A stretch of DNA of 64,000 nt from a virus. Positions 6,488 to 37,327 of the stretch are shown piece after piece. The notes beneath the pieces were generated by a model, which was not told the DNA's origin, made no database searches, and worked only from the letters and a program-made list of their open reading frames with translations. Location: the IMG/VR virus record IMGVR_UViG_3300045988_115849. The stretch is one strand, 5' to 3'. Each line of letters starts with the position of its first letter. The stretch's first letter is position 1. The position numbers were made by a program, and so were the translations under genes.

Positions 6488-6524
6488 TTTTAGTTTAGTA
6501 TACTATATAATAGATTTTAAGTAA

Positions 6525-6558
6525 GCATTTGTGGATGTATTTCCGCAGATGCTTTTTT
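6525..6558 (+). terminator. Intrinsic terminator between the 27-nt box and the portal gene
   Basis: 10-bp stem GCATTTGTGG/CCGCAGATGC (2 G.U pairs), 8-nt loop, then TTTTTT. Confidence 0.7.
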
Positions 6559-6584
6559 ATTGCGAAGAAAGAGGTGAAACGACA

Positions 6585-10025: not shown

Positions 10026-11096
10026 ATGTTATTAACAGACGTTTTTTCAGCGGAAGCAGTAGCACTCGCTAGAACTTCTGATGTAAGTAATTCCATGGCA
10101 TATGCCGGACTTGCTTTTTTCCCAAATAAAAAGAAAACTGGAATTGACCTGAAATGGATCAAAACACATAAAGGTCTTGGAGTTGCATTAAAACCATCTG
10201 CATTTGATGGTATGGCAACAATCCGTGCAAGAAAAGGATTCAAAGTGACAAATGAAGAAATGCCACTTTTTCGTGAATCTATGGTTGTAAAAGAACAGGA
10301 TTTAGCAGAGATCACAAGAGCTCAGGAATCCAATGATCCATACCTTAATGAAGTTTTATCTCATATCTATGATGATACAAACGAGTTAATTGATGGTGCT
10401 GATATTGCAGCCGAACGCATGAGAATGCAGTTACTTGCACCAGTAGGCGGAGATATGAAAATTGTAATCGGTACAGCTGACAATGTAGCTTACAATTACA
10501 GTTATGATCCGAACGGCGATTGGAAAGCAAAACATTATGCATCTTTAGAAGGGACAAGCACATGGGATAAAGCGGATACATCCAAACCATTAAACGATAT
10601 TCAGAAGGGTATTGATTACCTGACAAGTATCGGTGTCTCACCTATGTATGCAATGATGACTTCAAAAACATTTAACTATCTGATTGAAAACTCTCAGATC
10701 AAAAATGCTATTATTACAATTTCTGGAAGAACAATTGATTTTGTATCTAAACAAGTTGTAAAAGAAGTGTTCCAGTCTCAGACAGGACTTATCCCAATTT
10801 TATACGATAAGAAGTTTGAGGACTATGACGGTAAAGATAAGAGCTTCTATCCTGATGATTATGTAACAATCATCGGTGAAGGACAGCTTGGTAATACATG
10901 GTATGGAGTGACACCAGAGGAAAGAACATTACTTGGTGATCCTAGTGTAGATGTAAGTGTCCTTGATGATACAGGAGTTGCAATTGCTGTTAAATCTGAA
11001 TACGGACCACCAGTATCTTATTCAACTACTGCTTCTCAGATTGTTCTCCCATCTTTTGAAGGCATGGACAGCATTTATGTTATGAAAGTAAAATAG
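10026..11096 (+). CDS. Major capsid protein (lambda E / Phage_cap_E-like, tentative)
   Basis: 356 aa after the scaffold gene, with a strong RBS and the conserved leader upstream. Sequence resembles E-type capsid proteins. Confidence 0.75.
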   Translation: MLLTDVFSAEAVALARTSDVSNSMAYAGLAFFPNKKKTGIDLKWIKTHKGLGVALKPSAFDGMATIRARKGFKVTNEEMPLFRESMVVKEQDLAEITRAQESNDPYLNEVLSHIYDDTNELIDGADIAAERMRMQLLAPVGGDMKIVIGTADNVAYNYSYDPNGDWKAKHYASLEGTSTWDKADTSKPLNDIQKGIDYLTSIGVSPMYAMMTSKTFNYLIENSQIKNAIITISGRTIDFVSKQVVKEVFQSQTGLIPILYDKKFEDYDGKDKSFYPDDYVTIIGEGQLGNTWYGVTPEERTLLGDPSVDVSVLDDTGVAIAVKSEYGPPVSYSTTASQIVLPSFEGMDSIYVMKVK

Positions 11097-11313: not shown

Positions 11314-11658
11314 ATGACAGAGGAAATATTGAATGAATTAATTGAATATGCCGGAGATGATTATGAAGCAAATCAACAGTCATTTCTAAACTCATTGATT
11401 GAAGATGCAATAGAAGAAGTATGCTGTGCAATGTATCCCGGTGGATATGCTTCTGATAAAGAGTTTGAAAAACAGAAACAATCAGCTGTGAAACGATACA
11501 AAGGAAAAATAAAAAGGATAGCACAGTATCATTATGATAAACAAGGAAAAGAAGGCGTAGTCAGTTATTCAGAAAGCAGTACATCAGCTTCTTATGAAAA
11601 TTCTGGAACACCTTCTAGTTATTTGAGAGGTATTATACCTGAATCAAAAATTATCTAA
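11314..11658 (+). CDS. Head-tail connector (gp6-like)
   Basis: The N-terminal EEILNELIEYAGDDYE...LIEDAIEEV pattern is typical of gp6-like adaptors. Confidence 0.6.
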   Translation: MTEEILNELIEYAGDDYEANQQSFLNSLIEDAIEEVCCAMYPGGYASDKEFEKQKQSAVKRYKGKIKRIAQYHYDKQGKEGVVSYSESSTSASYENSGTPSSYLRGIIPESKII

Positions 11659-12146: not shown

Positions 12147-12548
12147 ATGCGATCAAGGCAAAGAGACAAGCAAAATATATGGTTTTCGAAAATTTCAGAA
12201 AATCATGATGATATAGATACTGTCATTACTTATGAAAAGCCGATCATGAAAAAAATGACCGTATCATCTACAAGTGGTACTGCGGAAGAAATATCAGCGG
12301 GTATTGTTCCGAACTATGATCGCTATATTACAAGTTATGACAGATCGTTTTGCGATTATGCAGAAGAAGGTGTCGTATGTTGGGTGGATTCAGAACCAGA
12401 ATTTAATCAAGATGGGTCATTGAGAATGGAAGATGATGAAATAACGCCAGTGACAATGCCAGATTATAAGATTTTGAAAATAATTGACACAAAAAAAGGA
12501 AATATCGCAAGGTATGGAATTAGCAAAATCAAAGGAGTGTATCAATGA
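12147..12548 (+). CDS. Head-tail joining protein (putative head closure)
   Basis: 133 aa. Assigned from its position in the connector module. Stop overlaps the next start. Confidence 0.4.
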   Translation: MRSRQRDKQNIWFSKISENHDDIDTVITYEKPIMKKMTVSSTSGTAEEISAGIVPNYDRYITSYDRSFCDYAEEGVVCWVDSEPEFNQDGSLRMEDDEITPVTMPDYKILKIIDTKKGNIARYGISKIKGVYQ

Positions 12549-14881: not shown

Positions 14882-15246
14882 TACTTGATACATTGTTTCC
14901 TCAGGCTGTAAAAGCCGGAATGACAAAAGATGAATTTTTTCACTCCACTCCAAAAGAAATTGGTGTATACATAAATGCATACAAAGAACAGAAAGAATAT
15001 GAATTGAAAAGTACAAATTATCAATCATGGTTAACAGGTTCTTATGTGTTGCAAGCGATTAATTGTGCTTTTTCTAAAAATGGGAATTATCCAGAAAACC
15101 CATTGCTAAAAGAAGAAAAAAGTATTGAATCAATTGAAAAGAGAAGTGGAAGAAGTAAAGAAGAAATGCAACAAGAATTAAGACTTATGGAACTCAGAGT
15201 TATGCAAGCAAATGCAAATATAGAAAAGATAGGGGCAGACGAATGA
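14761..15246 (+). CDS. Tail chaperone -1 frame extension (GT-like fusion part)
   Basis: The -1 frame is open from the slip site. The track ORF 14893-15246 has only a TTG start and no RBS, consistent with expression by frameshifting. Confidence 0.55.
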   Translation, partial: FFRSNRSEQDVRDRTRTEERTKETSGSQKENSESRSYREIILDTLFPQAVKAGMTKDEFFHSTPKEIGVYINAYKEQKEYELKSTNYQSWLTGSYVLQAINCAFSKNGNYPENPLLKEEKSIESIEKRSGRSKEEMQQELRLMELRVMQANANIEKIGADE

Positions 15247-15266
15247 TTCTGCCCTTTATTTTTTTA
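15233..15266 (+). terminator. Intrinsic terminator overlapping the chaperone stop codon
   Basis: Stem GGGCAGA/TCTGCCC, 8-nt loop, then TTTATTTTTTT. Confidence 0.7.
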
Positions 15267-18300: not shown

Positions 18301-19936
18301 CCTAAGTAGTATTGATTGGAGTGGAATATTCGGAGAAGTATTTACAACAATCAAAACAATATTAGGTGGACTTATCTCAGGATTAGGAACCACAATCGAA
18401 GGAAAGTTTATTATAGCTTTTGGTGCTATTAAACTTGTTACAGCAGTGGATAAAATTGTAAGCCCTATACTTTCGGCGTTTGGTTTAATACCTAAAGAAG
18501 TAGATGGATCGTCTTCTTTATTAATCATAGCATTAAAGAAAATGGCAGGAGCTTTTTCAAAATCTACATTAGGTACTGCGATTGGAACGTATGTTTTGGA
18601 TGCGATTAGCCTTTTAAAAGGCATTCCGGGGAAGATTACAACAGATGTTGCACCGAAGATCGCGGAAGTTATTTCAACAAAATTATTTCCAAAAGCGGTT
18701 TCATTTGCAGGTGGAATTGTATCATGGGTAACAGGTACGTTTGCACCAGCTGTATCAGCTGCATTTAGCAGTGTTCTTGGCGTGCTGTTCTCACCGATTG
18801 GATTAGCTATAGTTGGAGTAATCGTTGGTGGATTTTTAATATACAAAAACTGGGGTGCAATATCTAAGTTTATCGGAAACGTAAAAGAGAATATTGTGAA
18901 TGGATTTAACAGCGCCGGAGAATGGTTAAAGGAAAAAGGGAAAAACCTTATTGAAGGCTTGCGCAATGGATGGGAAAGTGCAAAATCTGGTTTCGGAACA
19001 GCTGTTAGCACAATCGGCAAATTTATTAAAGAGAAAGTTGGAAACGCCGGTGAATGGTTGAAAGAAAAAGGGCAGGATGCAGTCGAAGGTATCCGTAGTG
19101 GATGGGAGTCTGTAAAAGAAAGCAAAGTCGGTCAGGCAGCCGCAGGTATCGGAAATTACATCAAAGGTAAAGTCACTGGTGCTGAGAATTGGTTGGTTGA
19201 AAAAGGTAAGCAAGCTGTCAATGGGATGAAAAACGGTTGGGAGAACGTGAAGAACGGAAACTTCCAATCAACCGTAAAAGGATTAAAGAGTTTTACGGTA
19301 AATACATTAGCAAACACATCTCCGGCAGCATGGTTGGTTGCCAAAGGAGCAGAAGCTATGAAAGGTATGCTTTCTGGATTAAAAGGAGATAAATGGACAG
19401 ATGCTAGAAACTGGTTGAAAAAGTTACCGAGCAATGTAAAAAATGCCGTTGGAGATATGTATAAAGTTGGGCAAAATATCATTAAGCAGTTTATTAATGG
19501 TTTTAAATCTTTACGTATTCCAACACCTCATATTTCTTGGGGAACAAAAGACTTTAATTTTGGTGGAATGAGCTTAAGCATACCAACTAAATTTAAAGTA
19601 GATTGGTATAAAAAAGGTGGATTATTTGATTCTGCATCCGTGATCGGTGTCGGTGAAGCCGGATCAGAAGCTGTATTACCACTTGAAAATCCAAAAACTA
19701 TGAAGATGATCGCAGATAGTATCGTTGGTAATTCCGGCGGTATGGTTGATGAAAGTATCATTGCTGATGCTGTAGAACGTGGAGTAGTTGTTGCTATGAT
19801 GAACAATAGCGGAAATCAACCAGATATAAACTTATACGCAACATTATATACAGAAGATAACGAAGTTCTTGCAAGGTCTGTTGCAAAAGGACAAGCAAGA
19901 AATAATTACAGATTAAAACCATCAAGTGCATATTGA
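15323..19936 (+). CDS. Tape measure protein
   Basis: 1537 aa, helical and repetitive, with a Gly-rich tract and C-terminal approx 40-aa repeats (AGEWLKEKG..AVEG.R.GWE). Confidence 0.9.
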   Translation: MPDSTIETLDIQVKSSTARAVTALDNLANKLYDVSKAFKSVDTGSMRNYSREIGRVSSSLKSMSGIKINVPKLSGLSKQLQSLTNVNFTALNASSKPLKELASGLNALKGVSGVTIPKLDYKNINSVSKAIEKIGKLDTGNIQNSVNGISKVSHAMSVLNNVDFSDSKISSVINSIRKLMAVDTKGFDTQIFDSIYKSVSKLGNLPDVSSSINRLVASLARLISSGNNTGIVASKLPAVGNAIKQTANKLASVKGVEESINQFISALASLSSAGKKVELSANGLQIMAKELLSFFNTMSKAPAVSKNTVEMTKALAQLAASGGRVSSAVNTMNTSFGKLKNGFSELASLASRAGSAVSSGIGKMVNAIRNIGSASGSISTVNFSLKNLIQTAIGFKAVQAFGQFTKDAITLGSDITEAENVIDVSFGKLKYKAYDFASTASKQFGVSELAAKRYTGTIMAMLKSSGVAQNAASDMSVALAGLAGDIASFYNIDTDTAFYKIRAGISGEIEPLKQLGINMSVANMSAYALANGITKSWTSMTQAEQATLRYNYLMSVTKDAQGDFARTAGTWANQVRLLKLNIQSLSAVMGQGIIAAVLPAIKALNALMSRLMQAANMFRNFMYVLMGKKIKGATKGVVNDLGGVGDSATDLSGLGSAGNDASKGMNKASKAAKELKKTLSVLPFDELNQLNDNKQSSDTGSGGGAGGSGSGGGVGGGIGGLGDLSGLEDEDYETPISHWASRIRKAFLDNNWYGVGREIANMLNAGLQLAYDALDWKNVGPKITSFTTKFTQAINGFLDNFDFKLLGKVVGAGITDVVRAFNQIASPDGGINFKTLGTGIAESLKGMIQEIPWTELGNALGNYFMISWRILNGFLNQLAATDNTGLTGFQQIGVALGKAVNGMFQSIDFATIADTFAVGINGVFSILGKINETVHWSDIAANISHGINTFITGVNWEENGQILSTFVKNLLGVFSQVAQNTDWAGLGKGIGTFLSSIDWSGIFGEVFTTIKTILGGLISGLGTTIEGKFIIAFGAIKLVTAVDKIVSPILSAFGLIPKEVDGSSSLLIIALKKMAGAFSKSTLGTAIGTYVLDAISLLKGIPGKITTDVAPKIAEVISTKLFPKAVSFAGGIVSWVTGTFAPAVSAAFSSVLGVLFSPIGLAIVGVIVGGFLIYKNWGAISKFIGNVKENIVNGFNSAGEWLKEKGKNLIEGLRNGWESAKSGFGTAVSTIGKFIKEKVGNAGEWLKEKGQDAVEGIRSGWESVKESKVGQAAAGIGNYIKGKVTGAENWLVEKGKQAVNGMKNGWENVKNGNFQSTVKGLKSFTVNTLANTSPAAWLVAKGAEAMKGMLSGLKGDKWTDARNWLKKLPSNVKNAVGDMYKVGQNIIKQFINGFKSLRIPTPHISWGTKDFNFGGMSLSIPTKFKVDWYKKGGLFDSASVIGVGEAGSEAVLPLENPKTMKMIADSIVGNSGGMVDESIIADAVERGVVVAMMNNSGNQPDINLYATLYTEDNEVLARSVAKGQARNNYRLKPSSAY

Positions 19937-19975
19937 TTTGTGTAAAACTTTATGCTATGATGAATTTAAGTTAAG

Positions 19976-20035
19976 AGACATACACAGGATGCAAAGGTCA
20001 TGAAGACCACACAATCCTGTGTATGTCTTTTTTTA
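19976..20035 (+). terminator. Strong intrinsic terminator after the tape-measure gene
   Basis: 15-bp stem AGACATACACAGGAT/ATCCTGTGTATGTCT with an inner GGTC/GACC stem, then TTTTTTT. Confidence 0.85.
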
Positions 20036-20046
20036 TTTTAATAATT

Positions 20047-20118
20047 ACAGCAAACTAGCCATCGTGTGCCGGCGAAAAGAACGTCTTTCCTCGTGTACGT
20101 TCCGTTTGCTGTTTTTAT
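20047..20118 (+). terminator. Second terminator-like long-range hairpin
   Basis: ACAGCAAAC/GTTTGCTGT closes a 48-nt loop and is followed by TTTTTAT. Confidence 0.4.
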
Positions 20119-20171
20119 ATTTTAACATGAGGGTGCACACGTTAATGTTCAAATAACCACGAGGTGATAAT

Positions 20172-21200
20172 ATGAGTAAGAAATTAGATTTATTTTTCAA
20201 AAGTAACGTATTAGTAATCAATCCTGATCTTGCAAAAATGATTGGCTTAAATGAAGCAATCGTTCTGAATCAAATCTATTATTGGATTTCCGTAAATAAA
20301 AAACAGAACAGAAATTTCCACGATGGTAAATATTGGTGCTATAACTCTATCAGAGAGTGGCAGGAAGAAAATTTTCCGTTTTGGTCACATAAGACCGTTG
20401 AGCGTATTTTTTATAGTTTACGCAACAAGGGTCTTGTTTTAGTGGGAAATTATAACAATCGTCGTAATGGTTCTACATCTACAAAGTGGTATACAGTAAA
20501 CGATGAGGTTTTAGAAGAAATCATTGATCAGATTTTAGACGAACCAGAATCAGACCATACAGTTAGACAGAATAACTTTGAAAGCGACAACTTGACCGAA
20601 GCATTACCAGAGACTAACACAGATATTAACAATGCTTTATCTAACGATAAAGATTATGCTTTTTTATCAACAGAAGATAAAGATAATAATGATGTGTGTA
20701 GAGATAAAAAAGACTTCATGCCTATTTCTGGGAGAAATAAGGTCAAAATCATAAAGAGAAAGGGAAATAAAACTACTCTTAGTCAGACAATTGAAGATAA
20801 AATCCATTTAGGTTTTAGAGTCAATCAAGAGTTTGACGATGATTTGTATAACAATTCAAAAGATGAATGTGTAATCGGAGATATTGTTAAATACTTTTTC
20901 AAAAAATATCAGTTGGAGAAAGGAACAGACCATCCAATGATCTCTGACGAAAAATGCGTAGAGTTGGTTGAGAAGTTTTATTTTGTTCCTGAGAATATGC
21001 AAGACACAGAACTGGATTTTGATTTATACAAACTTATGATTGATAAATACTTTGCAACAGAATATGGCAAAAATAGCGGATTCACAATTAATTACCAGAT
21101 CATGCACTTTATGAATTATAAAATCCGTGAAAATCTATTCTACAAAGTTCAGGATGAATACTATGACAATGTTAAGAGTGATTATCCTGTTGAGATATAG
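20172..21200 (+). CDS. Winged-helix (DnaD / RepA_N / replisome-organiser-N-like) protein with unknown C-terminal domain
   Basis: 342 aa. N-terminal LAKMIGLNEAIVLNQIYYW...KTVERIFYSLRNKGLV...KWYTV resembles a winged-helix domain. This is followed by an acidic linker. RBS GAGGTGA upstream. Confidence 0.5.
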   Translation: MSKKLDLFFKSNVLVINPDLAKMIGLNEAIVLNQIYYWISVNKKQNRNFHDGKYWCYNSIREWQEENFPFWSHKTVERIFYSLRNKGLVLVGNYNNRRNGSTSTKWYTVNDEVLEEIIDQILDEPESDHTVRQNNFESDNLTEALPETNTDINNALSNDKDYAFLSTEDKDNNDVCRDKKDFMPISGRNKVKIIKRKGNKTTLSQTIEDKIHLGFRVNQEFDDDLYNNSKDECVIGDIVKYFFKKYQLEKGTDHPMISDEKCVELVEKFYFVPENMQDTELDFDLYKLMIDKYFATEYGKNSGFTINYQIMHFMNYKIRENLFYKVQDEYYDNVKSDYPVEI

Positions 21201-21227
21201 AATCATCAAAGAAAAGGAGAAGAAAAG

Positions 21228-21782
21228 ATGAAAAATACAACATGGAAAATACCATTGATTGTTCTAGCTGCGATTGTAGCAATAGCGTTAGTTGGCATAT
21301 TTATGATTCACATACCACAGAATCATGCAAATTCGATGGAAGAACAGATAATGGAATCAAAGGCGGCAATTAACGTTCAGGAAAAGAGAAGACAGGATTT
21401 AGTGTATAATCTGGCAGACAGTGTGAAATCTTACAACAAACATGAAGCCGAAACACTGAAAAATATTGTTAAAGAGAGAAGTTCAAATACCGGGAAAATT
21501 GAAAGTACAGGTACAGCGATTGCAGCAATAAAAGAATCTTATCCAGAATTAAAAGCTGACAAGAATTATCAACGGCTTATGAAAGAATTAGCAGTTACAG
21601 AGAATAAGATTTCTGACGTAAGAGACAATTACAATCAGCAGATCAAAGAATACAACAGATATGTCGTGAACTTTCCAGTGAACTTTTTCTTGAAACTGTT
21701 AGGATACAAACAGAAAACATATCAATATTTAAAATTTGAGGATGCAACAGAGACAGCACCGCAGAATTTATTTAGTGAGTAG
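21228..21782 (+). CDS. lemA: LemA family membrane protein
   Basis: N-terminal TM, then VQEKRRQDLVYNL...ESYPELKADKNYQRLMKEL..TENKIS..R..YN...KEYN, which are typical LemA motifs. Confidence 0.85.
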   Translation: MKNTTWKIPLIVLAAIVAIALVGIFMIHIPQNHANSMEEQIMESKAAINVQEKRRQDLVYNLADSVKSYNKHEAETLKNIVKERSSNTGKIESTGTAIAAIKESYPELKADKNYQRLMKELAVTENKISDVRDNYNQQIKEYNRYVVNFPVNFFLKLLGYKQKTYQYLKFEDATETAPQNLFSE

Positions 21783-21785
21783 CCT

Positions 21786-22538
21786 ATGAGAAAATTCAAA
21801 GGATTTCAGTTTGATACTTTTGAAATAACTCCACGAGAGATTATAGCAAGCGTTGTTATTGTTGGATTAATGTTTCTGATTGGCTTTACTATCAGTGGGA
21901 AAATTGATAATTACATCATGGATCAGAACGAAGAATATAATCGTGCTGCAAAAATTGAAAGCAATGATCTTTTTCAGTATGGGATGGAAACAGACTTGGG
22001 CAATGCATTTGTTTATGGGAAGATAGAGCCGGTTGATACAGTTACATACAAAGAAATTGGTGGTAAGTATTATTATATCAGGAAGATCAGAGAAGAATAT
22101 CGCAGACATGAAAAAACCGAAAGAGTTAAAGACAGCAAAGGAAAAGTTCATTACAAAAAGAAAGTCTGGTATTCATGGGATGATGTATGGAGAGAAAGTA
22201 GGACTTGTAAAAAGATTAAATTTGCAGGCAAGAAATTCAAGGAAGATAAGATTAACTTCATGGGAGGTCATTATCTAAAAAGAATTTATCATACTTCTCG
22301 TGTCAGGTATGAATACTATGGTATGGAAGCAAAGCCCGTTAAGGGAACTGTTTACACAAAGCTAAAAAATAATACTATGACAAGCTGTGATTTGAATAAG
22401 TCAAATCTAAAAGACACAGTTGAATCATACAAAACAAGTGGTGGAGTTTGTAAAATTCTGTTTTGGGTATTCTGGATCACTGGGACAGGGTTAGCGGTGT
22501 TCGGATTTTATTATTTGGATAATCATTGGTTAGAGTAG
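21786..22538 (+). CDS. Two-TM membrane protein (LemA partner; GIDE-like architecture, tentative)
   Basis: 250 aa. N-terminal TM (IIASVVIVGLMFLIGFTISG) and C-terminal TM (ILFWVFWITGTGLAVFGFYYL) flank a Lys-rich domain. Confidence 0.5.
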   Translation: MRKFKGFQFDTFEITPREIIASVVIVGLMFLIGFTISGKIDNYIMDQNEEYNRAAKIESNDLFQYGMETDLGNAFVYGKIEPVDTVTYKEIGGKYYYIRKIREEYRRHEKTERVKDSKGKVHYKKKVWYSWDDVWRESRTCKKIKFAGKKFKEDKINFMGGHYLKRIYHTSRVRYEYYGMEAKPVKGTVYTKLKNNTMTSCDLNKSNLKDTVESYKTSGGVCKILFWVFWITGTGLAVFGFYYLDNHWLE

Positions 22539-22549
22539 GAGGATATGAT

Positions 22550-22765
22550 ATGATCAAAAAAATTAGAAAAAATAAATTAGCTGTATCAATTATTGCAGTA
22601 ATCTTGGGAATGATCATAGTTTTTGCGGTCAATTTTGGAATTGTCAATTTTGTTTTGTGGTTGCTACAGTTTATTGTTGCAAAGCCTTTGGTTGTGACAT
22701 TAAAAGGAAAAGCAGCAGCTACTGTATTGTTAACACTTGTTGTACATATTTTTAGCCGCAAATAA
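22550..22765 (+). CDS. Small two-TM membrane protein
   Basis: 71 aa. I chose ATG 22550, which lies 7 nt after GGAGG. Confidence 0.5.
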   Translation: MIKKIRKNKLAVSIIAVILGMIIVFAVNFGIVNFVLWLLQFIVAKPLVVTLKGKAAATVLLTLVVHIFSRK

Positions 22766-22789
22766 GACCACATGATACACAATAAGACC
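22763..22789 (+). promoter_or_regulatory. 27-nt box TAAGACCACATGATACACAATAAGACC (copy 2)
   Basis: 24 of 27 positions identical to 6461-6487. The first TAA is again a stop codon. TAAAAT lies 18 nt downstream (22808-22813) and TATAAT is at 22801-22806. Confidence 0.5.
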
Positions 22790-22819
22790 AAAGAGTATTG
22801 TATAATATAAAATTATAAA

Positions 22820-22847
22820 ACGTCTATCGAGAACGATAGGCGTTTTT
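22820..22847 (+). terminator. Intrinsic terminator after 27-nt box copy 2
   Basis: 10-bp stem ACGTCTATCG/CGATAGGCGT (1 G.U pair), loop AGAA, then a T-run. Confidence 0.7.
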
Positions 22848-22855
22848 GCAGTTTA

Positions 22856-22908
22856 TACGGTCAATAAAAGCGAAAATTGATCGCTAACCTTAAATAGTTG
22901 GAGGTGGA
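22856..22908 (+). promoter_or_regulatory. Structural-gene leader, copy 4 (Dit-like gene; variant)
   Basis: TAC, then P1 (GGTCAAT/ATTGATC), then GCTAACCTTAAATAGTTGGAGGTGGA, 6 nt before ATG 22915. Confidence 0.55.
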
Positions 22909-22914
22909 TTTTTT

Positions 22915-23277
22915 ATGGCAGAACACATGATAGAAGTTAATGGTAAAGTAATGCCATGTCCAGCTTCTTATGAATGGTCATTGCAAGATGTATCAGCATC
23001 GGATTCAGGAAGAACAGATGATGCATTGATGCATAAAAATAGAAAAGCACAGAAAAGAAAGTTGGCATTGAAATGGAATGCTAAAACACCAGATGTTACT
23101 TCTGAAATATTGAAAGCCTTTAATCCAGAATATGTAAAAGTAAGATATTGGGACATGATGGCAAATAAATATCAGACAAGAACATTTTACACAGGGGACA
23201 GAAAAGCACCTGTGAAATGGTGGATAAAAAATAAAAAAATTATAGAGAGTGTTTCTTTTGACATAATAGAGAGGTAA
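22915..23277 (+). CDS. Small tail component (possible minimal distal tail protein)
   Basis: 120-aa ORF immediately upstream of Tal. Assigned from position only. Confidence 0.35.
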   Translation: MAEHMIEVNGKVMPCPASYEWSLQDVSASDSGRTDDALMHKNRKAQKRKLALKWNAKTPDVTSEILKAFNPEYVKVRYWDMMANKYQTRTFYTGDRKAPVKWWIKNKKIIESVSFDIIER

Positions 23278-26740: not shown

Positions 26741-27028
26741 ATGAACATAGATATGACATTTTCCGTACTGTCGGAAAATCTTAGCACAAAAATAAATACA
26801 ATCATCACAGAAGCAATGCAGAATGGTGCCACACTGGACGTTGTGGAAATGTCCTTGATTAAGGTACATAACGATGTGCTGATGCAGAAAAACAGGCTGT
26901 ATGCAGGGATGATAGAGCAACCTACTGAAAAAGAAATTGAGTTTAAAGACCAGAAAGCATTGAAAGAGTTTTTGGAGAAATCTGGTGTAGAAGTAAAAGA
27001 GGTGGATGCAAATGGCAAAGATAAATGA
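26741..27028 (+). CDS. Hypothetical tail-module protein
   Basis: 95-aa ORF between the Tal and fibre genes. Confidence 0.45.
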   Translation: MNIDMTFSVLSENLSTKINTIITEAMQNGATLDVVEMSLIKVHNDVLMQKNRLYAGMIEQPTEKEIEFKDQKALKEFLEKSGVEVKEVDANGKDK

Positions 27029-30000
27029 TTTACCGATATTGCCTAATCCGACAGAAGATATGTATTGTCTGGTTGGGAAAGATGATCTAAAGAAAGTACC
27101 ATGGTCTGCGATTATGGGGCAGATTGGTTCCCCTTATGTTGCAACATCAATATCACAAATGACAGATAAGACAAGGGTGTATGTCTATTATGGAGAAGAA
27201 AGTGGCTATATAAAAGGTAACTGGTACTATTGGAACGCCAATACATCAGCTTGGACTTCTGGGAAAAAGTATAACAGCGAGGGTATAGTTACAGATGAAA
27301 CGCTTGCAGTACCTGGAAAGGCTGCGGATGCCAAAGCTACAGGCGATAAGATTAAAAAAACAAAAGAAGATTTAGAAAATGCATTAAAAGACATTGATGT
27401 TACAACAGACACAACCTTGACCAAAACTGGAAAAGCTGCGGATGCCAAAGCCACAGGAGATGCCATAAAAAAAGTAAAGGAAGATGTGGCGAACATTGAT
27501 GTTGCTACAGATACAACACTTGCAGTATCTGGAAAGGCTGCGGATGCCAAAGCTACAGGCGATAAGATTAAAAAAATATCAGACGATTTAAAAAATACCA
27601 TGCCATATTATCCAATCGCAACAGAAGAACAGGCAAGGGCAGGAGTAGACGATACCGTTATGATGACTCCATTAAAAGTTGCTATGGCTTGCGAAGAATT
27701 TGGTGGCTCTGGTGGTGGCGGTGGAAACGTTAATGTCGCAACATTAAAAAGTAGCTTTACTGGTGGAAATTATGCGTATGGTTCGCCAATAGATATCCGC
27801 TATCGTTTTGCATCCCCAGTATCCGGAGATGGAACATTACATGTTATGGTGGATTCTGTCGAGACAGTTACAGAAACAGTACCGCAGGGAACAAACAGAG
27901 TCACACTAAACGATTTAAATAAAGGTAACCACACGATCACAATGTATGTTGTAGATGCGTCAGAAACATTTACAGATACACTTAGCTTTAGTGTCAGAGT
28001 TGGAACACTGGATATTACATCTACATTTGATGATAGTACAGACTTTAACATCGTAAATGTTATAAAAGTACCAATCACGATCGACACGATTTCTATTGAC
28101 CCGATATATCTGGTACAGACGATTGATGGAGTAGAAACAAGACTTTCTGCACAAAACGGATACAACGTTATAACTCTGCCTACAATGAGTGCAGGGGCAC
28201 ATAAAGTATTGTTCCATGCGGAATCTGGTTCCTATAAATCACAGACATTAACATATAACATCATTATTGAAGATGCCGATAATCTGACGTTAATAACTGA
28301 TTTTGACACAAAAACAATACAGTATAAAGATATGTTAGAAATCCCATATCGAGTATCCATGAAAGGGCAGACAAAATTTACAGCTCAGTATTTTGTTGAC
28401 GATACAGTTGTAAAAGAGGTTGAAATTCCATCTGGTACTAATGTTTGGGCCACAAGCACATTAGATATTGGTGCACATACTTTGAAAATCTTAGTCACAA
28501 CAAAAGATGGAAGTAAATCTGCATACATTGAAGAAAACGTGATTGTGCAGGCAAGAGATTATACGCCAATGGAACCAGTAAAAGATGCTTCTTTGCTTTG
28601 TTGGTTTGATGCAACAGGAAGAACAAATCAAGATGTGGGTAAAGAAACATGGACCGATAAATCTGGAAAAGGCGTTGTCGCAACACTGCACAACTTCAAC
28701 TACAACACAAACGGTTGGGAAAACAATGCTCTGAAATGTAACGGACAGGCTTATGTAGAGATTGACTTAGAAGCGTTAGCTGATAATGCCCCATACGGAA
28801 TGACAGTAGATATCCGATATAACACAAGAGATGTAGGTAACCAAGACGCGTGTGTATTAGAGATGAGAGGTAATGATACTTATAGTAAAGGTTTTGCAAT
28901 AGATACTGAGTATATGTATATGAACTCTGCATCATCTCAGTTAAAGAGTACGGTAGAACAAGATAGTATCTCAAAAGCAACTTTTGTTATTGATCGTGAC
29001 AATAAGATTGCAAAAATCTATAACAACGGTGTTCTGACAGAAACATTCTTGATGCAGGACAGCGAAAATTTCACAAACAACACAAAGATATTCTTAGGAG
29101 CAAAACTTGAAACAGTCGATTCAAAATGGGTTCCTAATGTGTTCGGAAACTGTGAGATTTATAGTTTTCGTGTGTATGCAAGAGCATTGGACAGTGAAGA
29201 AATTGTTAAAAACTTTGTAGCTGATATTCCAGATATGGACGAACAGCAAGCGAAATATCTTCTTAACTACGAAAACGCTATGCCTACGATGTATTTCTAC
29301 GGAGATACATCAGCAATGACAAAAGAAAATAAAGTACCGCTTAGGATTAAATATATATCTGGTAATGCAGATGAATATGGAGCTTCTTTTGATTTAGAGA
29401 ATTGTCAAGTTGGATGGCAGGGAACATCTTCCTTGCAGTACGCTGTAAAGAATTACAAAATCAAGTTAAAGAATCCAGATGGAAGTAAATATAAGTATAG
29501 TCCGTTCAAGAATGGGATCTTGGAAGATACATTCTGTCTGAAAGCGGATTATATGGAAAGCTCGCACGCAAACAATACAGGTATGGCTAAATTTATCAAT
29601 GACGAGTTATACGATACAAAAGTACCACCTCAGCAAACAAATAGTAAGGTCCGTACAGCGATCAACGGATTTCCAATCCAGTTATATATTGCAAAGGATT
29701 CTGCATCAACACCCGTGTATATGGGCGTATTTAATTTCAATCTTGATAAAGGATGTAACAAGTCATTTGGATTGGATAACGAGGTTACTGGACAGGAAAA
29801 CTGTATGTCTTTTGAGGTATCATCAAACTCTGACACATCAGCAGGTGCCTTTAAAAATGATACAGATGAATCTTTACGTACAGACTTTGAATTGAGATAT
29901 CCAGACGAAGATGATTGCACATCTGAACAGATTACTGAGAAGTACAACGTATTGAAAAGACTTGTTACTTGGGTAAAAAATGCAGATGAAACAACATTCA

Positions 30001-33000
30001 AAAACGAGTTAGAACAGTATTTCAACAAAGAATATCTACTCAAATATTTCTTGCAGGTACATCTATTCGGAATGGTTGACAACTTAGGTAAGAACATGAT
30101 GTTAACCACATGGGACGGAAACATCTGGTATCCGCAGTTCTATGACCTCGATACACAGCTAGGTCTGGATAATACAGGATATTTGAAATTTTACAGTGAC
30201 ATTGATATCACAGAGGGTGTTTACAACACGTCTGGTTCTAAATTATGGACGATGGTTGAAAATGTGTTTGTGGACGAATTATCTGCAATGTATAAGAAGC
30301 TTAGAACTTCTAAATATAGATTAGATAATATCTTGAAATACTGGTATGACGGACAGGTAGCTCAAATCGGGGAACTTCAATATAACAAAGATATGGAAGC
30401 AAAATATATCAAGTTTAAGAACGATTACCTATTCATGCTACACGGCAGAAGAAGCGAGCATATGAAGAAATGGGTAAAAGAAAGACTGTTATATCTTGAT
30501 ACTATATACGGTTATGAAGAAGACACGAAAGAATCCATCACAATTCGTGCAAATACTACTGCAAACATCAATCTTGATATTCTTACATATTCCCCACAGT
30601 ATCTGACAGTAAGGTGGAGAAATGGAGTAGAACAGAGGTTAAAAATCGGTCGTGATACTAACGGTATGATGAAAGCTACAAGATTTAACGGAACTCTTGC
30701 AACGGCAACGGACCAAGAAATCATCGTTTACAACGCAAAGCAGATTAAAAAGATTGACGGACTGACAAAAGCAAATCCATCAACATTAAACCTTGTAGAA
30801 GCAAGCCGATTGGTAGAGGTAGATTGTCAAAATGCGAAAGTGCTGAATGATATTCGTCTGAACGAAAACAATAAGTTTATTTCAAAGATAAAACTGAACG
30901 GCTGTACAAAATTAGGAGATACATCCACAGGAAAATCGTCTGTATTGGACTTATCAATGTTCGCAATGTTAAGCGAAGTTAATCTAAACGATACGTTACT
31001 TACGAATATCTTGTTCCCTACAAATGGATGTAACTTAAAGACACTACAGATAAGATCAAGTAAATTACAATCATTGTCTTTGAAAAATATGCCATTGTTA
31101 GGGCAGTTATCTGTTAATAAAGATGCGATACTATCCGAGTTTACAGTTGAGAACTGCCCAGAAGCATATATGCGGTACGATGTGCAAAATGGAAGAAAAA
31201 CGGTTCTTATAAGGTCAGAAACAATATCAATCAGTGGTTCTCCTAAATTGTTTGTGGATGATGATGTTGTATCAATAAATGTTCCTTCTACTGCTGGCGG
31301 TAATAATAATAATAATACACCATTGTTAAGAAATCTTAAGTTATGTGATATTGATAATATTCCTATATTGTTAATAAATGGTACAGGGGCACAAGGTAGT
31401 TATAAAGAAACGCACATTGAAACTTTCAAAATAGATTGTGGTATTGGATTCTTGAGATTGTTAGGTATGGGATTCAAAACAATGCAAGAGCAGATGGATA
31501 TTAACATGGAACGAGTTAAAGGTCTCATATTAAAAAGATTTACAAATATCAGAAGTGTTCATTTAACATCAAAAATGAATGGCGTTTATATTGCTAGTCA
31601 AAATATTTGTGGAGAATCTTTTTTAAATGGATATTTTTATAATAATGTATTTGGTGCTGGAACTTCCAGAGATGATGGAAATTATACTAATATGACGAAA
31701 CTTGAGTCTATTTACATGGATGATGTGGAAGTGACCGATACTATAGATTTTTCAAATAATCCCAAAATGGGTATGTTAGCATTAGACGAAACTGTGATAC
31801 CAGAATCAATCGGAAAAGTAATTGCGAACTGTGATTTTACAGCATATAAAACTCCAGAATGGATGTATAACGGATATAATGCCCGTTTCTACTTACCACC
31901 AATATTTGAGGTTGAGGGATGTATCAAGACTACGAGTGCTGATAAATTATGGGCAAAAACAGTCTCAGATACGGCATATCCGCCACTTCGTAATTTTGAG
32001 AAATTGACGTTAGAGTTAGATGAGGATTTCAATAACTTAGAAAAGTTTTTCTATAAGTTCAAAGCCTTAGAGAAATTACCAGATTGCATCACGCCAGAGG
32101 TGATTGGTAAATGTACTCAAATAAATAACGCATTTGACGGATGTATATGTCTGTCTAATATCAATCGTTTAGAAGGTGCTGATATCGAAATTACCTCGGA
32201 TGCAAATAAGTCAGTCGCAATGCGTGCGTTTTGCGATGTTAAAGGACCTTTCGCTCTTGGAAATATTTCCATTACCGGTAATACGATGAACGATGTGCAA
32301 AGTATGTTTCAAAATAGTGGCGTGACAAGCATTAGAAACATGGTTGTTAAATCGAAAACGAAAGATTATGCAGGTTACACATACGTATTTAATGGAGCGA
32401 CAAAATTGCAACATATAGGTAACTTGCAAATTGATACAAGCGAGAACGCCAGAGCAAGTGTCGGCTGTATGTTTATGAATTGCGGGTTAACAGATTATTC
32501 GAATGTTCATCTACCATTGAATGTTGATATGGATCAGACTTTTGAAGGCAGTTCATTAGCGTCTATAGAATCCATTCCAGATTATAAAGAAGTAATAAGA
32601 ACTGCAACATTGTTACAATCTACGTTTAGAAACACGCAAATAGAAAATGTACCGGACCTTGTGATAGATAACGCTACAACCATTAGATCTATGTTCAATG
32701 GTTGTAAAAAATTAAGAGAAGTTGCTAGTATTACAGGAAATGCTAACATAACGAACATTACAGAGATATTTAGGGACTGTTATAAATTGGAACACATATC
32801 AAAAGTATCGTTCCCTAATATGCAAAAGTCAACAGATATGGCCAGTCATTGTAATATACTTTATACGTCTGGAAAATCAAATTCAACTGGCCAGATTATC
32901 ATTGATTATTTGAATTTGGGGAAAGCGTTAGCTATCAGTAAAAACGAAATTACTAATAATGCATACGATGGTATGTTCCAATTCTTCCAATGTCCAACAC

Positions 33001-33230
33001 CTGTTAAAATCAATTTCCAATGCGATATTGGAACGATTATTGAAAAAACAGTTTGGTTAGGCAACATCAATGGTCTACCAGACGTAGAAACACTAAATAG
33101 CTTTGCAGACCACGCACTTACACTAGACAGTGCTTATACGTTAAAGGTTTCTAAAAATATCTATAGCTTATTTACATCGGAAATATTAGCTAAGTTATCA
33201 GCTAAAAACTGGACGATTGCATCAATGTAG
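27012..33230 (+). CDS. Giant tail fibre / receptor-binding protein (fibre repeats + LamG-like + CotH-like + BspA-type LRR)
   Basis: N-terminal fibre anchor (DLPILPNPTEDMYCLVGK) and three copies of GKAADAKATGD. A LamG-like segment follows. CotH-like motifs are present (KNYKIKL, CLKADYMESSHANN, INGFPIQLY, WYPQFYDLDTQLG). The long C-terminal region is LRR-like. I prefer ATG 27012, 6 nt after AGAGGTGG. Confidence 0.7.
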   Translation: MAKINDLPILPNPTEDMYCLVGKDDLKKVPWSAIMGQIGSPYVATSISQMTDKTRVYVYYGEESGYIKGNWYYWNANTSAWTSGKKYNSEGIVTDETLAVPGKAADAKATGDKIKKTKEDLENALKDIDVTTDTTLTKTGKAADAKATGDAIKKVKEDVANIDVATDTTLAVSGKAADAKATGDKIKKISDDLKNTMPYYPIATEEQARAGVDDTVMMTPLKVAMACEEFGGSGGGGGNVNVATLKSSFTGGNYAYGSPIDIRYRFASPVSGDGTLHVMVDSVETVTETVPQGTNRVTLNDLNKGNHTITMYVVDASETFTDTLSFSVRVGTLDITSTFDDSTDFNIVNVIKVPITIDTISIDPIYLVQTIDGVETRLSAQNGYNVITLPTMSAGAHKVLFHAESGSYKSQTLTYNIIIEDADNLTLITDFDTKTIQYKDMLEIPYRVSMKGQTKFTAQYFVDDTVVKEVEIPSGTNVWATSTLDIGAHTLKILVTTKDGSKSAYIEENVIVQARDYTPMEPVKDASLLCWFDATGRTNQDVGKETWTDKSGKGVVATLHNFNYNTNGWENNALKCNGQAYVEIDLEALADNAPYGMTVDIRYNTRDVGNQDACVLEMRGNDTYSKGFAIDTEYMYMNSASSQLKSTVEQDSISKATFVIDRDNKIAKIYNNGVLTETFLMQDSENFTNNTKIFLGAKLETVDSKWVPNVFGNCEIYSFRVYARALDSEEIVKNFVADIPDMDEQQAKYLLNYENAMPTMYFYGDTSAMTKENKVPLRIKYISGNADEYGASFDLENCQVGWQGTSSLQYAVKNYKIKLKNPDGSKYKYSPFKNGILEDTFCLKADYMESSHANNTGMAKFINDELYDTKVPPQQTNSKVRTAINGFPIQLYIAKDSASTPVYMGVFNFNLDKGCNKSFGLDNEVTGQENCMSFEVSSNSDTSAGAFKNDTDESLRTDFELRYPDEDDCTSEQITEKYNVLKRLVTWVKNADETTFKNELEQYFNKEYLLKYFLQVHLFGMVDNLGKNMMLTTWDGNIWYPQFYDLDTQLGLDNTGYLKFYSDIDITEGVYNTSGSKLWTMVENVFVDELSAMYKKLRTSKYRLDNILKYWYDGQVAQIGELQYNKDMEAKYIKFKNDYLFMLHGRRSEHMKKWVKERLLYLDTIYGYEEDTKESITIRANTTANINLDILTYSPQYLTVRWRNGVEQRLKIGRDTNGMMKATRFNGTLATATDQEIIVYNAKQIKKIDGLTKANPSTLNLVEASRLVEVDCQNAKVLNDIRLNENNKFISKIKLNGCTKLGDTSTGKSSVLDLSMFAMLSEVNLNDTLLTNILFPTNGCNLKTLQIRSSKLQSLSLKNMPLLGQLSVNKDAILSEFTVENCPEAYMRYDVQNGRKTVLIRSETISISGSPKLFVDDDVVSINVPSTAGGNNNNNTPLLRNLKLCDIDNIPILLINGTGAQGSYKETHIETFKIDCGIGFLRLLGMGFKTMQEQMDINMERVKGLILKRFTNIRSVHLTSKMNGVYIASQNICGESFLNGYFYNNVFGAGTSRDDGNYTNMTKLESIYMDDVEVTDTIDFSNNPKMGMLALDETVIPESIGKVIANCDFTAYKTPEWMYNGYNARFYLPPIFEVEGCIKTTSADKLWAKTVSDTAYPPLRNFEKLTLELDEDFNNLEKFFYKFKALEKLPDCITPEVIGKCTQINNAFDGCICLSNINRLEGADIEITSDANKSVAMRAFCDVKGPFALGNISITGNTMNDVQSMFQNSGVTSIRNMVVKSKTKDYAGYTYVFNGATKLQHIGNLQIDTSENARASVGCMFMNCGLTDYSNVHLPLNVDMDQTFEGSSLASIESIPDYKEVIRTATLLQSTFRNTQIENVPDLVIDNATTIRSMFNGCKKLREVASITGNANITNITEIFRDCYKLEHISKVSFPNMQKSTDMASHCNILYTSGKSNSTGQIIIDYLNLGKALAISKNEITNNAYDGMFQFFQCPTPVKINFQCDIGTIIEKTVWLGNINGLPDVETLNSFADHALTLDSAYTLKVSKNIYSLFTSEILAKLSAKNWTIASM
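27303..27576 (+). repeat. Near-identical 58-nt direct repeats (27303-27360 and 27519-27576) plus a diverged copy (27426-27473)
   Basis: Copies 1 and 3 differ at one base. They encode the L(A)V(P/S)GKAADAKATGDKIKK units of the fibre. Confidence 0.85.
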
Positions 33231-34145: not shown

Positions 34146-34901
34146 ATGGCAAATACGGTAGACAAGCTTCTTACAGTAGCTAAAAGAGAAGTCGGATACT
34201 TAGAGAAGAAAAGCAACAAGAATCTAAACAGCAAGACAAAAAACGCAGGTAGCAACAACTACACTAAGTATGGAGCATACTTTGGCATTAACGGTACCGA
34301 TGCCTACTGGTGTGACATGTTCGTGGATTGGTGTATGGTGCAGGCATACGGCAGGGATGTAGCAAAAAAACTCTTACATGGCTTTAGTGCATACACTCCA
34401 ACATCAGCACAAAAATTTAAAGACAATGACCAGTGGCATAAAACACCGCGGATTGGAGACCAGATTTTCTTCAAGAACTCTCAGAGAATCTGCCACACTG
34501 GGATTGTGTATGCAGTAACTGATGAGATGGTGTTCACGATCGAGGGTAACACAAGTAACGGAGAAGCAGTTATTCCAAACGGTGGTGCTGTATGCAAGAA
34601 ATCCTACGCAAAGAGTAACAGCCGTATCGCAGGATATGGACGACCTAAATATGATAACGTAAAAGTATCATACAGCATTGTAAAAAAGAACTCTTCTAAA
34701 TCTGCGATCAAGTGGTTACAGAAAAAGCTGAACGCAAATTGTACATACGCAAACGAACATCCATTAGCTATTGATGGAATCTGGGGAGCAAAGACAACGC
34801 AAGCCTTGAAGAAATACTGGAAACAGTTAGGATGGAACACGTCTGGAACATATGCAGGAAAGAAAACTTGCACAGCTTTGAAAAAAAATCGAAAAAAGTA
34901 G
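34146..34901 (+). CDS. Endolysin: CHAP domain + PG_binding_1-like domain
   Basis: CHAP-like Cys and His motifs (YWCDMFV, ICHTGIVYAV, IEGNTS). The C-terminal AIKWLQKKLN...IDGIWGAKTTQALKKYW resembles a peptidoglycan-binding repeat. Confidence 0.85.
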   Translation: MANTVDKLLTVAKREVGYLEKKSNKNLNSKTKNAGSNNYTKYGAYFGINGTDAYWCDMFVDWCMVQAYGRDVAKKLLHGFSAYTPTSAQKFKDNDQWHKTPRIGDQIFFKNSQRICHTGIVYAVTDEMVFTIEGNTSNGEAVIPNGGAVCKKSYAKSNSRIAGYGRPKYDNVKVSYSIVKKNSSKSAIKWLQKKLNANCTYANEHPLAIDGIWGAKTTQALKKYWKQLGWNTSGTYAGKKTCTALKKNRKK

Positions 34902-35200: not shown

Positions 35201-35317
35201 GTTCCATCGGTGTTCCAATGTTCCATTTGCGTTCCATGATTTCAAAAAAATATTAAGATACCATCTCACTACCTTGTTCCATTTTTTGTTCCATGCTTTG
35301 TTCCACTTTTTGTTCCA
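35201..35317 (+). repeat. Eight direct GTTCCA arm-type repeats
   Basis: GTTCCA at 35201, 35212, 35220 and 35231 (intergenic). Four more at 35276, 35288, 35300 and 35312, exactly 12 nt apart, lie inside the integrase 3' end. One inverted copy is at 35153-35158. Confidence 0.75.
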
Positions 35318-36431: not shown

Positions 36432-36533
36432 TGTATCACTCCTTAATTCTAAAAAATAGGTATAAAAATAACAGCTACGCAATTCCTAAAATTGGAATTT
36501 GCATAAAACGCAAAATGGTTAAAATTTTACGAC

Positions 36534-36643: not shown

Positions 36644-37327
36644 TTATTTTATTGTAACTTTGTATTTAGCTAATCTATAAAAGCTAATATTTCCGTTTTT
36701 GTATTGCACAGCTTCAACATAATGAGTTCCAGATTTTATCTGATTACCGGTAACCATAAGAGAAGCTTGAGCACCATAATTTACGTATGTTTCGTCTACC
36801 TTTTTACCGTCAATGTAAATTTTTACAGGAGTTTCTTCTGTCAAGTCAGTTATATAGTAATCAACATATCCAAAAGGAGTACCTTTATTAATTAACAAGA
36901 CTGGGATTTTACCGTTTTCAGATGTTCCAGATGCTAAGTAAATATAAAAATTACCAGTTCCGAAATCTCCTTGATTTTTTAAATATGGACTTCTGTTGGT
37001 TGAATTAACGTTGTTTTTTCGACTAACTTTAACTTTACATTTATATTTTTTCTTTCCAATCTTAGCTGTGATAGTCGCACTTCCTGCTTTCTTAGCAACA
37101 ACTTTTCCATTCTTAGATACTGTTGCTACAGATTTTTTGCTACTAGACCATTTAGGCTTTTTCTTTGTTCCTTTTACCTTTAATGTTTTAGACTGTCCAA
37201 CAGTCAGTGTGATTTTTGAGTTGGAAATTTTAATCTTTGACTTTGCGTTAACTGATTCTAAATTTCCAAAAACACCAAGTGTGACAGCAAGTAAAAACAC
37301 AGTTAATAATTTGCAGGCTTTTTTCAT
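36644..37327 (-). CDS. Secreted Big_2 (bacterial Ig-like) domain protein
   Basis: Signal peptide MKKACKLLTVFLLAVTLGVFG. Big_2-like ITLTVGQSKTLKV...SSSKKSVATVSKNGKVVAKKAGSATITA. I chose ATG 37327, which has a GGAGGGG RBS. Confidence 0.7.
   Translation of the reverse strand: MKKACKLLTVFLLAVTLGVFGNLESVNAKSKIKISNSKITLTVGQSKTLKVKGTKKKPKWSSSKKSVATVSKNGKVVAKKAGSATITAKIGKKKYKCKVKVSRKNNVNSTNRSPYLKNQGDFGTGNFYIYLASGTSENGKIPVLLINKGTPFGYVDYYITDLTEETPVKIYIDGKKVDETYVNYGAQASLMVTGNQIKSGTHYVEAVQYKNGNISFYRLAKYKVTIK

Follow-up and report, generated by a model that had tools for sequence, protein, structure and literature searches.

A moron-like insertion in the tail operon of a temperate siphophage carries a widespread LemA-containing gene pair with a possible role at the host membrane

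In Gram-positive and T-even phages, superinfection-exclusion membrane proteins such as Sie2009, Ltp of phage TP-J34 and Imm and Sp of phage T4 act at the step of DNA entry; such proteins occur in temperate as well as virulent phages. A bacterial LemA protein often has another membrane protein as its partner. The LemA family is very common in bacteria but is without an established biochemical function, and membership in it explains little. Here we analysed IMG/VR record IMGVR_UViG_3300045988_115849, a 64,000-nucleotide stretch of viral DNA (the window) that represents a temperate siphophage, and in particular an island at positions 19937-22914, where four co-directional open reading frames (ORFs) of 342, 184, 250 and 71 amino acids (aa), referred to as g1, g2 (LemA), g3 and g4, lie between the tape measure gene and a DUF6711 gene. 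Like Sie2009, Ltp and the T4 proteins, which are phage-encoded accessory membrane or surface proteins, g2, g3 and g4 have predicted transmembrane (TM) segments; unlike those proteins, which act singly, LemA and g3 appear as an obligate pair, and there is no sequence or structural relation between the two groups.

The island also resembles a described tail-operon insertion, the moron of phage HK97, whose product gp15 is a membrane superinfection-exclusion protein that blocks genome entry of superinfecting phages (PMC3594210). In both cases extra DNA that is absent from related phages lies beside a tape measure gene, and in HK97 too the product is a small protein of the inner membrane (Juhala et al. 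2000; Cumby et al. 2012). The HK97 moron is bounded by transcription signals of its own; the island has its own terminator and a promoter that is only a candidate. The differences are that gp15 is a single YebO-like protein from a Gram-negative phage, whereas the island holds four genes of three origins with no sequence relation to gp15. Judged by the features used to define morons (PMC3594210), the island is extra DNA between genes that are adjacent elsewhere and ends in its own terminator, a hairpin with a U-run at 22817-22851, but its base composition does not set it apart from the surrounding genes. The type of element is already known, a moron-like accessory insertion in a tail operon. 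Although the island is of an ordinary type, its core, the LemA-g3 pair, is an undescribed and widespread phage module.

The insertion is best seen by comparison with the related phage MT835477 (locus L023), which is 73% identical to the window phage in the terminase, 61% in the portal, 71% in the capsid, 38% in the tape measure and 56% in the DUF6711 protein. Because only 15 nucleotides (nt), without a hairpin, separate the tape measure stop from the DUF6711 start in MT835477, this comparison shows positions 19937-22914 to be, on the evidence of the empty site, extra DNA inserted at the junction of the tape measure gene and the gene in the position of the distal tail protein (Dit). An earlier sequence-only reading of the window had described an insertion of about 2.9 kb after the tape measure with four co-directional genes; the ORFs were found as described, and the comparison of relatives that it proposed yielded both states, with MT835477 lacking the insertion and ten copies of the lineage carrying it. 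These copies come from different metagenome samples (L003-L010, L064, L065), and the island is kept in 10 of 10 at about 99% identity, including both intergenic regions, while the receptor-binding genes downstream vary among them. No GenBank phage matched the island in a DNA search at near identity. The gaps between the four genes are 27, 3 and 11 nt and contain no hairpin, and a single transcription unit is therefore the simplest reading.

LemA and g3 form the core of this insertion. g2 matches the Pfam LemA family PF04011 with an E-value of 1.6e-30 (106.3 bits, cut-off 26.2) over profile positions 3-146 of 149, and also matches phrog_1383; a hydrophobic TM segment occupies residues 3-32, the remainder aligns to the LemA profile, and an NCBIfam MamQ match (3.3e-17) is sub-threshold. 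g2 thus has the usual N-terminal TM helix and helical domain of bacterial LemA and MamQ proteins, and differs from them in its partner, a PHROG 3886 protein without a Pfam family, and in belonging to a pair that is phage-borne and mobile. That partner, g3, matches phrog_3886 with an E-value of 1.7e-67 (residues 7-250 on profile positions 1-263 of 263), and a profile search of 1.84 billion representatives placed 961 clusters at 50% identity in its family. Hydropathy gives hydrophobic segments at about 14-41 and 220-242, in agreement with an AlphaFold2 model that has a helix at 16-47, strands at 74-202 and a helix at 208-244 (pLDDT 70, above 85 in the beta core). In the PDB, g3 has neither a sequence match nor a significant fold match. 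Among the viral structures of BFVD, its model matches a 269-aa phage protein at 4.9e-16.

The g3 model also resembles giant-virus ORFans of similar length from Satyrvirus, Klosneuvirus, Tupanvirus and Hyperionvirus (Foldseek E 1e-9 to 1e-5), and the plan of a beta domain between two TM helices may extend well outside the phages. TMEM43 (PF07787) and GIDE/MUL1 likewise place a beta-rich domain between TM helices, and some depositors have labelled Enterococcus phage homologues of g3 'transmembrane protein 43' or 'RING-type E3 ubiquitin transferase'. TMEM43 gave a weak match in 2 of 40 g3-family members (best E 1.8e-6), whereas g3 of the window and 9 further homologues lack any Pfam match, and there is no RING domain. 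An assignment to GIDE/MUL1 (PF12483), suspected in part from one 'RING-type E3' label, was rejected, as no GIDE match occurred in the 40 + 9 members.

A LemA gene stands directly upstream of the g3 homologue in all 35 bacterial genome loci with upstream sequence, and the same adjacency holds in every phage or metagenome locus examined (L001, L002, L015, L017-L021). The LemA partners in Latilactobacillus phage TMW 1.46 P1 and Lactococcus phage PLg-TB25 also belong to the g3 family (hhalign probability 99.8% and 99.4%, respectively). This gene order shows LemA and g3 to be, in the loci compared, an obligately linked pair common to many Firmicutes phages, temperate and virulent, with a range that takes in prophages of gut Lachnospiraceae, virulent Enterococcus myophages, and Lactococcus, Latilactobacillus and Lysinibacillus phages. 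Outside the lineage of the window, none of the loci examined has the pair in a tail module or together with g1 or g4; it lies directly upstream of terminase or RinA genes or within the replication regions of large phages. In MT835477 and in a Blautia metagenome-assembled genome (MAG) it is found directly upstream of the terminase gene instead of at the tail site. The sequence-only reading had treated the island as a single cassette, and this did not hold up: g1 roams alone, neither g1 nor g4 accompanies the LemA-g3 pair at its other sites, and g4 is specific to this lineage. Comparison of these loci shows the island to be a mosaic of three units with separate histories, namely g1, the LemA-g3 pair and g4.

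The ten near-identical copies reveal a second property of the pair. Among them, g1, the tape measure gene, the DUF6711 gene and the intergenic regions are 98-100% identical, and three (L006, L009, L064) carry a second allele of g3 with 75% aa identity, in which the variable block falls to 48-85% nt identity against 98-100% in the TM-coding ends and flanks. In L009 the LemA allele is 82.6% identical at the aa level, with 73-88% nt identity in the block and about 100% on either side, and in L064 LemA is partly replaced (93% aa identity). The ratio of nonsynonymous to synonymous rates (dN/dS) is 0.07 between the g3 alleles, where synonymous sites are saturated (pS 0.74), and 0.15 for LemA. Such low dN/dS (0.07-0.15) marks the divergent blocks as functional alleles of long standing, acquired through recombination. 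For these blocks, positive selection was considered and rejected, as values of 0.07-0.15 indicate recombination, not rapid adaptive change. For LemA, the count of lysine and arginine residues is 2.8 before the TM helix and 1.1 after it (n = 34 pairs), which fits an N-in/C-out topology. From these counts we infer that the soluble domain of LemA lies outside the membrane and, less surely, that the g3 domain does likewise. The swapping of outward domains between otherwise identical phages suggests, from the alignments of these copies, a role in conflict at the cell membrane, and lends indirect support to the idea of the sequence-only reading that the genes could act in superinfection exclusion or membrane-level defence.

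We therefore favour, tentatively and at somewhat less than an even chance, the reading that the island is a moron-like insertion whose LemA-g3 core forms a complex in the membrane with a part in conflict at the envelope, possibly in superinfection exclusion. The four genes would be read as one unit. LemA, with one TM helix, and g3, with a beta domain between two, would sit in the host cytoplasmic membrane with their soluble domains outward and act as a complex. The outward domains, which alone are exchanged as blocks, would be the specificity determinants that meet a variable partner. The job of the pair would most likely be exclusion-like, hindering membrane penetration or DNA entry by other phages, and the terminator-bounded unit may also be expressed from the prophage. 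An exclusion-type role is favoured because of the analogy with the tail-operon moron gp15 of HK97. A broader proposal, that LemA and PHROG 3886 make up a widespread and undescribed two-component membrane system with which Firmicutes phages, temperate and virulent alike, exclude competing phages, with specificity set by the exchanged outward domains and a g3 fold found also in giant-virus ORFans, seems to us doubtful. If the exclusion reading is true, it would give LemA its first testable role. A phage LemA with a fixed partner and swappable domains would in any case offer a genetically tractable route to the role of LemA, with Enterococcus phages or L. sakei TMW 1.46 P1 as possible systems.

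Several observations weigh against this reading. The GC content of the island (0.33-0.336) is not atypical relative to the downstream tail genes, being matched by that of the next 2 kb (0.337), with 0.38 in the tape measure gene. A comparison of the four proteins with the PADLOC-DB 2.0 models gave no meaningful match, the sole one being a chance-level Cas5 (E 0.0094), and no functional study of a phage LemA or of the LemA-g3 pair turned up in our literature searches. Allele replacement shows recombination of diverged functional alleles and not positive selection, and the outward call for g3 is weak, with 3.0 against 2.0 lysine and arginine residues. The consensus scan revealed no convincing dedicated promoter between the second upstream hairpin and g1, and the sole consensus-like promoter, at 19933-19961, sits upstream of the strong first hairpin. 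Flanking by terminators is not unique to the island either, since terminator-like hairpins occur on the coding strand elsewhere in the late operon, at 15231-15256 before the tape measure gene and at 6523-6554 at the start of the portal gene. Lastly, the sites where the pair usually stands, namely early regions, positions upstream of terminase genes and virulent phages, mean that its core role may be a membrane function of the lytic cycle.

Given those usual sites, a lytic-cycle membrane role is nearly as likely as an exclusion-type one. It would have LemA-g3 serve the phage's own lytic cycle by stabilising or remodelling the membrane, maintaining the proton-motive force, setting the timing of lysis or countering envelope stress, and would make its place in the tail operon an accident of recombination; stated in this full form, we regard it as possible if somewhat unlikely. 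In strictly virulent Enterococcus myophages the pair has genes of nucleotide and NAD metabolism as neighbours, in large phages it is found inside replication regions, and in several temperate phages it ends the early region, right before RinA or terminase genes. For the same reason, the proposal of the sequence-only reading that the genes are expressed in the lysogen cannot be generalised to LemA-g3, as the pair occurs in virulent Enterococcus myophages and often at the early/late boundary upstream of the terminase gene. LemA-like domains have, moreover, been tied to membrane remodelling (MamQ) and to membrane scaffolding (bioRxiv 10.64898/2026.07.15.738315). However, swapping of the soluble domains alone between phages that are about 99% identical is more easily explained by a variable partner, and the pair is found at differing places in related genomes, as accessory genes are. 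Nor is its occurrence in virulent phages decisive, as the exclusion proteins Imm and Sp belong to the virulent phage T4.

An improbable alternative is that LemA-g3 is an anti-defence or host-takeover device directed against a membrane-associated defence or abortive-infection sensor of the host, with variable domains that track host targets. The restriction of allelic diversity to the soluble domains would fit such a device, as would the company it keeps: the window phage also encodes a Tad2-like domain (47633-48370) and an Apyc1-like metallo-beta-lactamase (MBL) protein (49341-50141), and the pair in L017/L018 lies two genes upstream of a Tad2-like gene. Yet no known anti-defence protein resembles LemA or g3, and the predicted outward orientation would restrict the targets to extracytoplasmic ones.

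The first gene of the island, g1, bears on a different proposal, that an autonomous replicon carrying a RepA_N-type initiator, either a plasmid or a satellite, integrated into the prophage and left the island as its remnant. The N-terminal 130 or so residues of g1 match PHROG 6493 ('DnaD-like helicase loader') at 3.3e-32 and PHROG 11233 at 1.5e-27, and tblastn relates them to annotated initiators of Staphylococcus, Listeria and Bacillus phages, the staphylococcal ones being up to about 50% identical over about 100 aa. In the AlphaFold2 model, a winged helix (18-123) and a helical C-terminal domain (203-335) are confident and the linker between them (127-201) is disordered. The best Foldseek matches are the RepA_N plasmid initiators 4PQL, 5KBJ and 4PT7 (probability 0.99-1.0, E only 0.015-0.05). 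The N-terminal domain is thus structurally closest to RepA_N plasmid initiators and homologous to the winged helix of phage replication initiators, and, as in RepA of pSK41 and pTZ2162, a flexible linker joins it to a helical domain at the C-terminus.

Against these likenesses stand several differences. No Pfam family matched the whole protein at E ≤ 0.1 (RepA_N, DnaB_2, Phg_2220_C and Phage_rep_org_N were all unmatched). The C-terminal domain, although conserved across full-length homologues (alignments A2 and A4), gave no Pfam match across 14 homologues and no match in a PDB profile search, and is unrelated to Phg_2220_C or DnaB_2. A DnaD/DDBH2-type domain, prompted by a Y-x3-I-x3-F pattern, was rejected for lack of a PDB or Pfam match, and a match to a crAss tail-hub protein (E 0.099) is noise. 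No iterons, tandem or clustered direct repeats or origin were found in 19900-22950, and there is no recombinase, partition gene or flanking direct repeat at the island. g1 sits in the tail operon and not in the replication module; the phage encodes a separate replisome organiser, to which g1 shows no similarity, and a DnaC-like loader, both at 51244-52756. Finally, g1 homologues roam singly, and LemA-g3 has a separate history. We consider a replicon remnant, which the sequence-only reading had raised as one possibility, very improbable. A role of the island proteins in the virion, in the tail or in tail assembly is barely credible: the site between the tape measure and Dit-position genes and the label 'virion structural protein' of phrog_1383 would suit such a role, but that label is confined to re-annotations derived from PHROG (the records originally read 'LemA family protein' or 'hypothetical'), MT835477 builds its tail with nothing at the site, other phages carry the pair well away from their structural genes, three of the four products are predicted to be integral membrane proteins, and no tail function was found for any of the four, as had been supposed from the letters alone.

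Counting g1 and its full-length homologues (30-38% identity) together, three lineages have the gene behind the tape measure gene, two have it ahead of the terminase gene and one has it in the lysogeny module (Table 1). These placements show g1 to be an accessory gene that roams independently, and the downstream side of the tape measure gene to be, judging by the three lineages, a recurrent landing site for a roaming RepA_N-like gene. g1 is most likely a DNA-binding protein, and would either regulate the island unit or interfere with foreign replication origins. A homologous protein of about 150-166 aa (31% identity, no Pfam match) precedes the g1 homologue in L011 (7497-7997) and L024 (6417-6863); a guess that it is a GIY-YIG protein was rejected, no Pfam match having been obtained, and it has no homologue in the window. 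Membrane proteins follow the g1 homologue in both loci, a 238-aa signal-anchored protein with a bPH_1 protein in L011 and a 68-aa protein with two TM segments in L024.

Table 1. Positions of the island, its signals and other genes of the window, with locations of g1 homologues in other loci
Feature	Position	Strand	Remarks
Terminase large subunit gene	4325-6034		
Portal gene	6531-8147		SPP1-type
Major capsid gene	10026-11096		
Tape measure gene, 1537 aa	15323-19936	+	PHROG tape measure families, e.g. phrog_1535 at 3.8e-92; upstream edge of insertion site
Sigma-70-like promoter match, candidate	19933-19961	+	TTGATT-17 nt-TATGAT, TG before -10 hexamer; overlaps tape measure stop codon
Hairpin 1	19973-20031, with U-run to 20041	+	Strong intrinsic-terminator type, U-run; inverted repeat I3
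Hairpin 2	20047-20118, to 20124 with trailing UUUUUAUAUUUU	+	Weak or atypical terminator or leader structure; inverted repeat I11
g1, 342 aa	20172-21200	+	RepA_N/DnaD-like winged-helix N-terminal domain, disordered linker, helical C-terminal domain
g2, LemA-family protein, 184 aa	21228-21782	+	N-terminal TM helix, then helical domain
LemA variable block	21281-21760	+	Soluble domain, codons ~18-178
g3, 250 aa	21786-22538	+	PHROG 3886; TM, beta-rich domain, TM; conserved GFYYLDNxWLE tail (alignment A1)
g3 variable block	21960-22470	+	Codons ~58-228, beta domain between TM helices; from sliding identity
g4, 71 aa	22550-22765	+	ATG at 22550, own upstream AGGAGG ribosome-binding site
Downstream intrinsic terminator	22817-22846, with UUUUU to 22851	+	13-bp stem, GAGA-type 4-nt loop, then UUUUU
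DUF6711 gene, 120 aa	22915-23277	+	Dit position; Pfam PF20458 at 1.1e-10, phrog_1194 at 7.5e-35; downstream edge of insertion site
1148-aa tail protein and 2074-aa CotH-domain receptor-binding candidate	After DUF6711 gene		
CHAP endolysin gene	34146-34901		
Integrase gene	35253-36482	-	
Replisome organiser and DnaC-like loader	51244-52756		Early region, which also has SSB and RecT
g1 homologue, L012/L013	Alone between tape measure and DUF6711 genes		35% identical
g1 homologue, L025	After tape measure gene		Behind terminator, perfect TTGACT-17-TATAAT promoter and small RHH gene
g1 homologues, L014 and L024	Upstream of terminase large subunit gene		
g1 homologue, L011	Lysogeny module, after S24 repressor		Co-directional

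The protein identities proposed earlier from the letters alone agree with our searches: a RepA_N/DnaD-like winged helix with an unmatched C-terminus, a true LemA, a protein with a TM segment at each end and a small protein with several. The structure prediction and Foldseek comparison suggested at the time were run on g1 and g3, and assigned a tail function to neither, the former being nearest to RepA_N initiators and the latter being without a PDB fold match.

The two upstream hairpins had been read as terminators that insulate the island. This is well supported for hairpin 1, which has an 18-bp outer stem (dG -33 kcal/mol, z = -8.4) equalled by 0 of 200 shuffles. Hairpin 2 is weaker than implied, with a 9-bp stem closing a 48-nt interior (dG -22.4, z = -3.6) and an unstable centroid structure. 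A gathering-threshold Rfam scan of the whole window returned two tRNAs only, leaving hairpin 2 without an Rfam family, and a known RNA element in the leader was rejected, as a permissive Rfam scan of 19850-20250 gave chance-level matches only. The terminator proposed at the downstream end is borne out by a 13-bp stem followed by UUUUU (dG -16.4, z = -4.7); it is symmetric and could work in both directions, and the scan lists it on the minus strand. Similar signals recur at this junction. In L012 and L025, too, the tape measure gene is followed by a long hairpin and U-run, which the empty site of MT835477 lacks; L012 also has a hairpin comparable to the downstream one, then TTTTTGCG, ahead of its DUF6711 gene, leaving no space for a promoter. 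The presence of terminators within the late operon implies read-through or antitermination of the late transcript.

The promoter candidate is a lead only, since consensus matches are not enriched in the sequence (13 against 22.5 expected from shuffles). A TTGATT-17-TGnTATTAT arrangement recurs at the tape measure stop in L012, at 7693-7721. In both phages a long hairpin with a U-run comes directly after the promoter match (window 19933-20041, L012 7693-7800), although the tape measure protein of the L012 phage is only 33-43% identical. This layout might correspond to a short RNA or to a regulated leader, or it might have arisen by chance in DNA rich in AT.

The last gene of the island, g4, was called by the mechanical ORF list as 79 aa from an upstream TTG at 22526. 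It encodes a hydrophobic protein with a basic N-terminus and 2-3 membrane segments that matches no Pfam or PHROG family, and its homologues are confined to this phage lineage. Its variants comprise conservative substitutions, which argue for a real gene, one 5-aa deletion and one frameshifted copy. That copy, in L065 (3754-3960), is frameshifted after codon 25, which could be an assembly error in a T-run or a sign of dispensability; it had looked like a 43%-identical 'allele', an idea rejected because it is the same DNA read in another frame. A role for g4 as a conserved third partner of LemA-g3 was also rejected, as the gene downstream of g3 differs at nearly every locus. Size and hydrophobicity would fit a holin, but g4 has no holin match in Pfam or PHROG and the CHAP endolysin gene is 11 kb away.

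The host of the window phage is likely a member of the Lachnospiraceae, judging from its kinship with the Blautia MAG, the closest relative in the genome collection (terminase large subunit 78% identical), and from the g3 family, which occurs mainly in Lachnospiraceae genomes. Tape measure homologues precede the insertion site in L023, L012 and L025. At its other edge, the 120-aa DUF6711 protein occupies the Dit position and is a candidate for Dit itself. Beyond the tail-tip protein, the genes at 27006-33230 differ among the copies that are about 99% identical (L003-L010, L064, L065), the variants being the 2074-aa CotH-domain protein, beta-helix proteins and collagen-repeat proteins, which indicates swapping of receptor-binding modules. 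Next to the integrase gene, on the lysogeny strand (minus), lies a gene for a 237-aa Big_2 (bacterial Ig-like) protein (36644-37357), a candidate surface protein made by the prophage. The early region contains a cluster of candidate counter-defence genes at 46408-50141, in which a protein with a PAPS-reductase domain (46408-47688) accompanies the Tad2-like (anti-Thoeris) domain protein and the MBL-fold protein, whose match to Apyc1 (anti-Pycsar) is weak.

Upstream of the terminase gene, a gene for a 486-aa DUF2828/DUF7788 protein (2222-3682) lies between tRNA-Met (1975-2048) and tRNA-Arg (3686-3761), and this region of the window (1975-3761) is the place where relatives have the LemA-g3 pair. 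MT835477 in turn has about 9 kb of extra genes (L023 527-9898) between the homologues of window 11314-11658 and 12147-12548, another large insertion within a structural module, in the head-tail connector region.

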